Positions 9,088 to 10,949 of a stretch of 64,000 nt of DNA are shown here, piece after piece (position 1 is the stretch's first letter; each line of letters opens with the position of its first letter). The notes under the pieces were generated by a model that was not told where the DNA came from, ran no database searches, and worked only from the letters and a program-made list of their open reading frames with translations. The DNA comes from Eledone cirrhosa (Eukaryota): contig OZ024746.1 of assembly GCA_964016885.1 (NCBI GenBank), forward strand, positions 6,386,001-6,450,000, in the 5' to 3' direction. The position numbers were made by a program, and so were the translations under genes.

Positions 9088-10609
9088 TAATGTCAGACTG
9101 GAACCGGCACCACCCCTAGCAATTAACATCAGTAGCACACCTTACACCTCACATCCACACCCATCTCTATACTCTAAAGATAATACTGACAGCATTTTAG
9201 TACCACCTACCCTGGGAAGACCACCTTGTACCTCTAATTCTGATATCTCGACCGTGGACTACTTATTCTGCATTGCACAAATATAAGATTAGTATAAACT
9301 GTGGACACGGTACTGGTTGCGATAACATAGTCCTGTGCTTGGATTCCCACCAAGAGATAGATTGATGATTAGATAGATAATCGTATTGTTATGTGAATAT
9401 ATACTGTAAACGATCAGTTCAATGAATTATGCACGTAATCATCTTGATGTGAACTCCTTTAGTACCTATTAATAGACTCCACTCTAGCTTGTAGATGTGA
9501 TACTTAATTGATTTATATATGAGACGGGGGTTGTCTATTGCTTGATGACCAGACTAGTGACTTTATATGAGAGATTGGATCTCCGGACCATACCGAAGAT
9601 TTACTGGAGATTCAGACATGCAATGACCCGGAGCCTACCGGGTGGCATATATAATAGTGGGCCCATACCAGGTCCTACTGTTATATTACATTTGCATGGA
9701 ACAGTGACTTGAGAGTCTGACTCCTCTTATAGAACGTTCAGATATGACACCCCTTAATGGATGGTAATCATCCTAATATATACACCCTTGTACTTCTTAA
9801 TGGACAACTCTCTAACCTATAAATGGGTAACATACTCTAGAAATTAGTTATAACTTCATATGATAGGCACGTATTTGAATCACCATTAATGTAGTTTAGG
9901 ATAGTAATTTATCTAAGATAACTAGCTAGTTACCTCCCCTTACGCATTAATTCCCCTTAGTCATTCAGACACTTCCGGAATCTGGACAGCATGTTCTATT
10001 AATTAAGAACCGACTGGATACGGTTTATAGCTTGATTATATGCTGAACCACCGCGAATTATACGATAGATACGTGTTCTCTATATATATTGCGTCTCATG
10101 GATTATGTGAGTGGTGGTGTGAGCGAAGACAGTGGTACGGCTTTGCCTACGATACAATAAGGTTTATAGTATGTTGAAAGTTTTTGATATTTTGGTGTTC
10201 CCCTGCATCCGAGACTGTATATCATACAGATGTATGAGAATAAATGACTTAATAATTCAACCCACATAATAAGATCGATTGCCTGCTTCAACTGCCTGAC
10301 CCTGCAAATATCATTCTGACGCACTCTAATCATGTATAAATAAGACACGCGTGCATGCTACACGTGAGATTGTTTCATACACTGACTACTCTAAACTTTC
10401 CTCTTGCTTTATCTTCATAGACTGCCAACGCTTCATGTTTGTCTTTATTTTCATTCTTGTTTTTATTTTTATCCTGGAACCTTTATATGTAAATTGCCAT
10501 GCTATATCATTTGATGAATGTCACCCCACTGTTGATCAATATGCGCATATGTTTTATGTGTCTCTTGGGTTGAAAAGGAGGTCAAGTATGTTATAGATCA
10601 GTAAATAGT

Positions 10610-10656
10610 TGATCCGAAGAATCCAAACCTCGGTTTGGAGGAAACAATTGTAAGCA
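10610..10656 (+). ncRNA. HHR-like motif at the PLE 3' terminus, CCGAAGA core variant
   Basis: TGAT-CCGAAGA-A TCCAAAC[CTCG]GTTTGGA G-GAAA-CAATTG-TA-AGCA. The copy at 54778-54824 has an intact stem I (TGCT/AGCA). Confidence 0.65.
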
Positions 10657-10949
10657 AATAAATGACTTAAACTGAACTTTGATTATTGTAATCTCTCTCT
10701 CTCTCTCTCTCTCTCTCTCTCTATATATATATATATATATATATATATATATATATATATATACACATACATATATATATATATATATATATATATATAT
10801 ATATATACACATACATATATATATATATATACATATATATATATATATATATATATATATATATACATACATATATATATATATATATATATATATACAT
10901 ATGTATGTATGTATGTATGTATGTATGTATGTATATATATATATGTATG

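Follow-up and report, generated by a model that had tools for sequence, protein, structure and literature searches.

A truncated Penelope-like element and its terminal hammerheads

The window, a 64,000-nt stretch of the 3.0-Gb genome of Eledone cirrhosa (C6:6386001-6450000), holds on its forward strand the open reading frame (ORF) of a Penelope-like element (PLE), followed by a 3' untranslated region (3' UTR) or pseudo-LTR and a hammerhead motif, and on its reverse strand two solo 3' termini of related elements (Table 1). The first-pass annotation had described an open PLE encoding reverse transcriptase (RT) and GIY-YIG domains. The PLE ORF is present, but it is truncated at its 5' end: element sequence begins at about 7327, where it adjoins a (TA)n run, roughly 230 N-terminal residues are missing, and the stop-free frame immediately upstream (7189-7326) is microsatellite. 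The ORF DNA is 97% identical to full-length units elsewhere in the genome, and the missing N-terminus is supplied by a 4,697-bp tandem unit on contig C1. Two tandem units of this length, 99.9% identical and with one frameshift common to both, extend from L031:6595 to L032:6634. The 3' UTR of the tandem units contains an internal duplication of about 150 bp, one unit of which is absent from the window copy. Intact frames of 832 amino acids were found in a sister subfamily at L141:2454-4952 (-) and L149:1054-3552 (+), each a single ORF with RT and C-terminal GIY-YIG. These two copies are flanked by hammerheads with C at core position 4 (C4) and ACAGCTGT in helix III, and are candidates for recently active elements.

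Table 1. Features of the element and its hammerheads in the window (standard hammerhead numbering)
Feature	Position	Strand	Remarks
5'-truncated PLE ORF	7327..9087	+	RT from just before motif A (FDINSYY, YRDD) to C-terminal GIY-YIG; CxCX5C, CxxC, CxH
3' UTR / pseudo-LTR	9088..10609	+	gap after 9434 (blastn blocks) relative to the 4,697-bp tandem unit on C1, which is about 394 bp longer
Type I hammerhead	10610..10656	+	helix I 10610-10613/10653-10656, private lesion at 10612; predicted cut after A10652
Core C3-C4-G5-A6-A7-G8-A9	10614..10620	+	C replaces U4 at 10615
Helix II and CUCG loop	10622-10639	+	flanked by A.G mismatch 10621/10640
G12-A14 (GAA)	10641-10643	+	
Helix III octamer, self-complementary	10644..10651	+	8-bp dimer helix predicted
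A17	10652	+	followed by helix I 3' strand, 10653-10656
Cut-to-end stretch, 44 nt	10653..10696	+	element 3' end at (CT)n(TA)n run; putative RT start
Solo 3' terminus, sister subfamily	39516..39848	-	C4 core 39598-39592; helix I lesion
Solo 3' terminus, same young subfamily as the 10614 copy	54569..55123	-	intact C4 hammerhead at 54820; tail of about 170 bp, end 213 nt past the predicted cut

Pfam searches gave no significant match for three element proteins, including the window ORF and the RT part of L032, so the RT/GIY-YIG assignment rests on motifs and alignment. Hydra-type motifs can be read in the element proteins, namely RWR (RWK-like), ADKT, CNCRANRTC, CNLC and CQH. The CCHH motif is absent from Hydra-clade endonucleases; read by eye, only one Cys lies between the IY and YIG boxes here. 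The element has a repeat-ORF-repeat layout with a hammerhead in each repeat, and in a tandem the ATG lies 258 nt past the predicted cut. Copies are inserted into (TA)n and occur as pseudo-LTR tandems and with inverted termini. As judged from sequence, with reference Hydra proteins compared by eye, the element is a Penelope-like retrotransposon with Hydra-clade motifs. The nearest database proteins in a protein search were 31-46% identical, the organism-named one coming from Argonauta hians. A non-LTR retrozyme, which would be a non-coding tandem repeat of 170-400 nt, was ruled out: the units measure 4.2-4.7 kb and contain an ORF, and the solo termini have variable 5' ends.

The core motif CCGAAGA occurs three times in the window, at 10614-10620 (+), 39598-39592 (-) and 54820-54814 (-). 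In all three copies a single base separates the core from a 7-bp stem II with a CTCG loop, and a further single base separates that stem from GAA, which is followed by ACAATTGT and A; the copies thus agree with the first-pass annotation in having CCGAAGA rather than CTGAAGA and a 7-bp stem II. The annotation had also taken ACAATTGT for stem III; it forms an 8-bp helix only between two copies, but in a monomer it offers no more than a 2-bp stem with a 4-nt loop. A blastn search of positions 7331-10700 against the window found two other copies only, at 55123-54738 (88.6% identical to the query, a value lowered by a single 32-nt gap) and at 39848-39516 (76.8%). The latter had been called clearly diverged, and it belongs to a separate subfamily with C/A at 10.1/11.1. 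Helix I is broken in the 10614 copy by a private C-to-A change at 10612, a site that lies within TGCT in each of the 29 other top-scoring loci. In the 39598 copy it is the 3' strand of helix I that is altered, by a G-to-A change; the only intact hammerhead of the three is the one at 54820. An element end had been placed at 10693. The 10614 copy does end there (about 10693-10696), but the 54.8-kb copy runs about 170 bp further, to about 54569. The window copy departs from the hammerhead consensus twice, by U4C and by an A.G mismatch at 10.1-11.1; the non-canonical 10.1-11.1, the 5' truncation of the ORF and the helix I lesions had been overlooked in the earlier reading. Among the matches listed from an Rfam scan (150 of 157), there was no hammerhead at any of the three C4 sites.

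Hammerheads with a canonical core also lie in the window, at 896 (-), 25571 (-), 41609 (-)/41702 (+), 43306 (-)/43433 (+), 43657 (+) and 47066 (+). They have an AT-rich helix I of 6-8 bp and a palindromic helix III, are often arranged as inverted pairs, and to all appearance are a separate repeat family. A further canonical type I hammerhead at 62420-62491 (+) matched Rfam Hammerhead_HH9 (E 1.4e-5, below the gathering score). The proposal that the short hammerhead islands are tied to an RT/GIY-YIG element holds for the C4 family, but not for the CTGA islands at 41702, 43433 and 62438, which gave no blastn match to two full units of the C4 element.

A second abundant Hydra-type PLE family is represented in the window at 19832-19843 (+) and 18950-19441 (-) and elsewhere at L170-L189, with 45% protein identity to L149. 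At the hammerhead position, 20/20 of its loci have GAAA, a self-complementary octamer and GUA, and none of the 20 has a CUGANGA box nearby. This motif may be half of a hammerhead, a partner acting in trans or a rearrangement. In two further loci (L142 and L143), inverted hammerhead termini whose cores are broken recur about every 3.3 kb; these arrays lack an ORF match and were apparently amplified as satellite-like DNA. Other retroelement-like ORF fragments, at 23375-24289 (+), 26539-27345 (-) and 53195-53716 (+), were read by eye as a LINE-type RT, a PLE-type RT and a non-LTR C-terminal piece. Positions 55961-58662 hold an array of 2.7 kb, rich in trinucleotides, that gives long low-complexity frames.

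Core position 4 across the genome

The first-pass annotation had proposed that CCGAAGA is a natural, inherited U4C variant, and tabulation of position 4 across the genome supports this far beyond the three copies in the window. A 32-letter pattern had 5,283 genomic matches compared to 0 for its reversed control, indicating that the match is not by chance. C4 is present in 5,283 of the 5,389 copies with this stem II, and CTGAAGA is accordingly not the core of most copies. The remaining 106 copies with the fixed stem II include, among the first 100 listed and read by eye, 64 with T, 22 with A and 14 with G. With a looser pattern, C4-G5 was found in 7,400 + 2,606 = 10,006 copies compared to T4 in 558, and all reversed controls gave 0. 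A core-blind search, in which helix I and outer helix II were fixed, returned 11,079 matches (control 609). Its first 100 rows, read by eye, contain 94 family members, 86 with C4 and 8 with T4; lineage-level variation in these 94 is found at position 7 only, and no alternative core recurs. An older subfamily with a GAAA loop, also searched core-blind and read by eye in 100 of 564 rows, has 83 C4 and 14 T4. In the TTCC lineage the sole long locus (L131) is T4 in both copies, and C4 dominates that lineage's rows from the looser pattern. These counts mark C4 as the normal state of the lineage. Three complex insertions (L146:975-7339, L147 and L148) have a rare A4 or G4 core in every hammerhead copy, which suggests that one template site was copied several times or that the copies were later homogenised.

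The copies with U4 (T4 in DNA) are, on their placement in trees, scattered and independent reversions, with T4 as the derived state. In a larger tree of 120 rows, position 4 was included among the sites, T4 was oversampled (59/120) and the near-identical young copies were mostly omitted (24 of 144). T4 requires 33 changes on this tree, at least 17 of them forced by supported branches, compared to a shuffled mean of 40.4; 3 of 500 shuffles were as low, indicating slight clustering of T4, and inverted partners were near-copies. A second tree, with positions 4-5 masked, contained all 36 matches of one search, which come almost entirely from the oldest-looking subfamily. Here T4 was unclustered, with 11 changes compared to a shuffled mean of 12.3 (144 of 500 as low), and for this oldest-looking subfamily we rejected the idea that T4 copies are ancestral or a separate subfamily. 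Among 20 T4 loci from small contigs, 6 have an inverted partner, and in 5 of the 6 the partner is C4.

Because C4-G5 is a CpG, CpG decay is the likely source of T4. A strict test of CpG decay was half borne out: T4 was found in 558 copies compared to 266 for the mirror change, G5A. The two changes are about equally frequent on the largest contigs, where 100 T4 copies are reached by C3:123 Mb and 100 G5A copies by C3:194 Mb. In one subfamily on contigs C12-C28 there are 14 T4 and 0 G5A among 17 copies. Compared to C1-C7, these small contigs are enriched for C4-to-T without a matching rise in G5-to-A, a strand asymmetry at the CpG.

A hammerhead predicted to be slow and to act in pairs

Hammerhead features were scored in 176 loci, gathered by core-fixing patterns that leave H17 and helix III free; most subfamilies were found via patterns that fix the core. 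C3, G5, A6, G8, A9, G12, A13, A14 and the A15.1-U16.1 pair are present, as a type I hammerhead requires. U at core position 4, also required, is replaced by C in the copies counted above (5,283/5,389), and the purine-pyrimidine pair at 10.1-11.1 is lacking: these positions are unpaired in 23 of 32 rows and U-A in 8. H17 is A in 88 loci, C in 86, U in 2 and G in 0, consistent with an NUH cleavage triplet. Helix III is fully self-complementary in 161 of the 176 loci and occurs in five sequence states. Self-complementary inner tetramers are 36 of the 256 possible, and by our arithmetic the joint probability of finding self-complementarity in all four derived helix III states lies between about 0.001 and, with transition bias, about 0.06. 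In 32 aligned copies, 88.2% of the cells in the three helices (helix I with open ends) are paired, compared to 24-44% for slid partners. Covariation is thin, with 88.2% paired compared to 87.1% after shuffling (21/500), and the sole substantial compensatory pair is a change from A-U to G-C in helix II in 9 of 32 rows.

For a typical young copy, the active fold of the monomer was calculated at -9.9 kcal/mol compared to a minimum of -15.0 kcal/mol, and the single-strand minimum is not the active hammerhead, as expected for a dimer type. The active fold as a dimer was calculated at -15.5 kcal/mol per copy compared to a cofold minimum of -18.0 per copy, which places the active dimer of the young subfamily 5 kcal/mol above the cofold minimum; helix III duplexes range from -5.8 to -11.1 kcal/mol. 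The ribozyme is predicted to cut slowly and only in pairs. In the literature, metazoan PLE hammerheads are weak and dimer-dependent (PMC4209133, PMC6765202, PMC7229834), a viroid U4C variant has lower activity in vitro and still supports infectivity (PMC3088659), and in deep mutagenesis all single changes in the CUGA turn are low in activity (PMC9901934). By analogy with this published mutagenesis, attenuation by U4C is a reasonable expectation.

C4 cores flank Hydra-type ORFs that are 65-83% identical to L149 in protein sequence (65-74% across subfamilies). Identity at four-fold sites is 40-52% between deep lineages, and across four representatives the invariant sites number 18 of 80 at four-fold positions overall and 3 of 25 at those with C. 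Helix I, the core and A15.1-U16.1 are fixed across subfamilies, and position 7, loop II, 10.1 and 11.1 vary. Because helix I, the core and A15.1-U16.1 are unchanged, H17 is never G and helix III is self-complementary while four-fold sites have diverged, the whole motif is, on comparative evidence, under purifying selection in a hammerhead-like pattern. The changes at position 7, at the cleavage base (A or C, never G) and in loop II, together with the self-complementary helix III, would be as expected for a selected, dimer-forming ribozyme. We make no claim of selection for C over U specifically, as 12-22% of neutral sites (3/25, 18/80) are equally invariant.

Among 35 young copies, the insertion end lies 40-49 nt beyond the predicted cut in 25 and at +213 in 4; another 3 continue into the ORF, and for the other 3 no end could be assigned. 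Ends at 40-49 or 213 nt past the cut imply that the template was uncut or re-ligated there, and a low cutting rate would thus be tolerated. An RT start just 3' of the cut would also mean that 5'-truncated insertions are solo termini carrying the hammerhead. Internal RT initiation on unprocessed RNA has been shown for a lizard PLE, PAc, with uncut RNA as the main template (PMC11167929), and by analogy the end positions found here would match its end-and-tail RT start sites. The A4 or G4 core in every copy of L146-L148 implies that such templates were still inserted or were later homogenised.

We consider it probable that the lineage has carried C4 since before its subfamilies split and that its terminal-repeat hammerhead is likely slow, predicted to cut only when two copies pair. 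In the mechanism that we propose, a transcript spanning two repeats would bring two palindromic helix III octamers together as an 8-bp helix. This helix would complete two active sites, cutting after GUA in the young subfamilies or GUC in the older ones, at a rate held down by C4, by the unpaired 10.1-11.1 and by a helix I of only 4 bp. Reverse transcription would start just 3' of the cut, on uncut or re-ligated template, and occasional cutting would free unit-length RNA from read-through transcripts. Several observations count against this explanation: the thin covariation, the position of the active dimer above the cofold minimum, the low activity of CUGA-turn changes in deep mutagenesis (PMC9901934), to which the 10.1-11.1 mismatch is added here, the A4 or G4 insertions, the second family lacking a CUGANGA box, and the lizard PLE whose catalytic mutants still inserted in vitro (PMC11167929).

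A bolder form of the slow, pair-dependent hammerhead, in which slow cutting itself would be what selection maintains, seems to us possible but doubtful. Reversion to U4 is frequent at this CpG (558 copies), yet half of the synonymous sites have turned over without a U4 subfamily taking over. On that reading the reason would be that fast cutting severs the RT start, 44 nt past the cut, from the template. Together with the sister family, which keeps the palindrome and the cut-site half, the genome would then show PLE hammerheads that have been tuned down, with dimer pairing kept last.

Alternatively, the motif may no longer cut and may serve as an RNA structure, with a palindrome that dimerises RNAs and a fold that guides the RT/endonuclease to its start site, 44 nt further on. 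On this view C4 would be a step in the loss of catalysis. Such a role would sit well with insertions that require RNA intact across the cut site, with A4 or G4 in all copies of three insertions, and with a second Hydra-type family in which just the 3' half of the motif is present. For the lizard PLE, catalytic mutants were without effect on insertion in vitro and no RNA-seq reads ended at the cut (PMC11167929). However, subfamily variation is confined to positions at which catalysis tolerates it (7, 17 as A or C and never G, and loop II), and C3, G5, A6, G8 and A9 were fixed in the core-blind search though only 18 of 80 four-fold sites are invariant. We therefore regard a purely structural role as unlikely.

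It could also be argued that cleavage is efficient in its own context, C4 being compensated by an element protein, a stable helix II or dimer contacts. Circles would be the templates, and C4 would be neutral and frozen. The viroid U4C variant is adequate in vivo (PMC3088659), and CYGANGA descriptors are in use, with C/U degeneracy at that position reported in natural sets (PMC13481778). The 99.9% identity and common frameshift of the tandem units are what copying round one template would give, and a neutral C is invariant across these lineages in 3 of 25 cases. Efficient cutting is nevertheless improbable in our view: a tertiary contact between loops I and II is not apparent and helix I has only 4 bp, PLE hammerheads with U4 are already slow (PMC4209133), and circles dependent on efficient cutting do not readily account for the A4/G4 insertions. 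Finally, the idea that CCGAAGA is an ordinary CTGAAGA hammerhead that has decayed in a handful of copies, or a chance resemblance, draws on the other lesions in two of the three window copies but is refuted to near certainty by the genome-wide counts, with C4 in 98% of copies, T4 derived and reversed controls of 0.

Relation to known hammerheads and Penelope-like elements

PLE hammerheads are common, slow and, in the one in vitro system, dispensable for insertion (PMC11167929). Here a core change is fixed in some 10,000 copies of a successful and recently active lineage, beside hundreds of natural revertants, and the two offer a ready pair for testing slow cutting as an adaptation. Searches that demand CUGANGA and a 10.1-11.1 pair, and Rfam in the present case, miss whole animal hammerhead families. 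U4C and the element class were both already known, which limits the surprise.

The closest described elements are the Hydra-clade PLEs (Craig et al. 2021, PMC8557442). They share with the present element the C-terminal GIY-YIG, the RWK-like and DKT motifs, the CxCX5C linker, CxxC and CxH, as well as (TA)n targets, inverted and tandem pseudo-LTRs and a 3' hammerhead. The Hydra rows of its File S2 have a 10.1-11.1 mismatch in 15 of 26 cases (14 U.U, 1 U.C). Since the mismatch is thus a trait of the Hydra clade, C4 is the new part. In contrast to C4 here, CTGA is present in 26 of 26 of these rows, including Hydra-1_Obim; searches in that study required a CTGA core, so C4 could have been missed. 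The elements also differ in unit size (4.2-4.7 kb here, under 3 kb in the Hydra-clade PLEs) and in tail length (about 170 bp here, 30-40 there).

The PLE hammerheads described by Cervera and de la Pena (2014, PMC4209133) are likewise type I, with a 7-bp helix II, a 4-bp helix I and a palindromic helix III, and were predicted to act as dimers with low activity, as predicted here. Their core variant is U3-A8, and G10.1-C11.1 is highly conserved, in contrast to C4 and the 10.1-11.1 mismatch of the present lineage. The searchable text and supplements of that paper contained no C4 core.

Among viroids, U4C (Ambros and Flores 1998, as described in PMC3088659 and PMC3884650) is the identical core change, weaker in vitro and functional in vivo. 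There it is a single variant of a tertiary-stabilised ribozyme (PMC3088659), whereas here it is the fixed state of a DNA element lineage of 10,000 copies. The Anolis Poseidon element PAc (Frangieh et al. 2024, PMC11167929) resembles the present one in that two start sites downstream of the cut set the element end and the tail. For PAc the RT start sites and an uncut RNA template were demonstrated, whereas here they are read from insertion ends; PAc has a canonical core, belongs to another clade and has its start sites inside the ORF, whereas here they would lie in the 5' UTR.

In our literature search, no PLE family was described as having a fixed C4 core; Lunse et al. 2017, on PLE hammerhead variants, may already include such cores, and some supplements may bear on the point. 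PLE hammerheads, Hydra elements and U4C are each already known, and what is new is C4 fixed in a PLE lineage.
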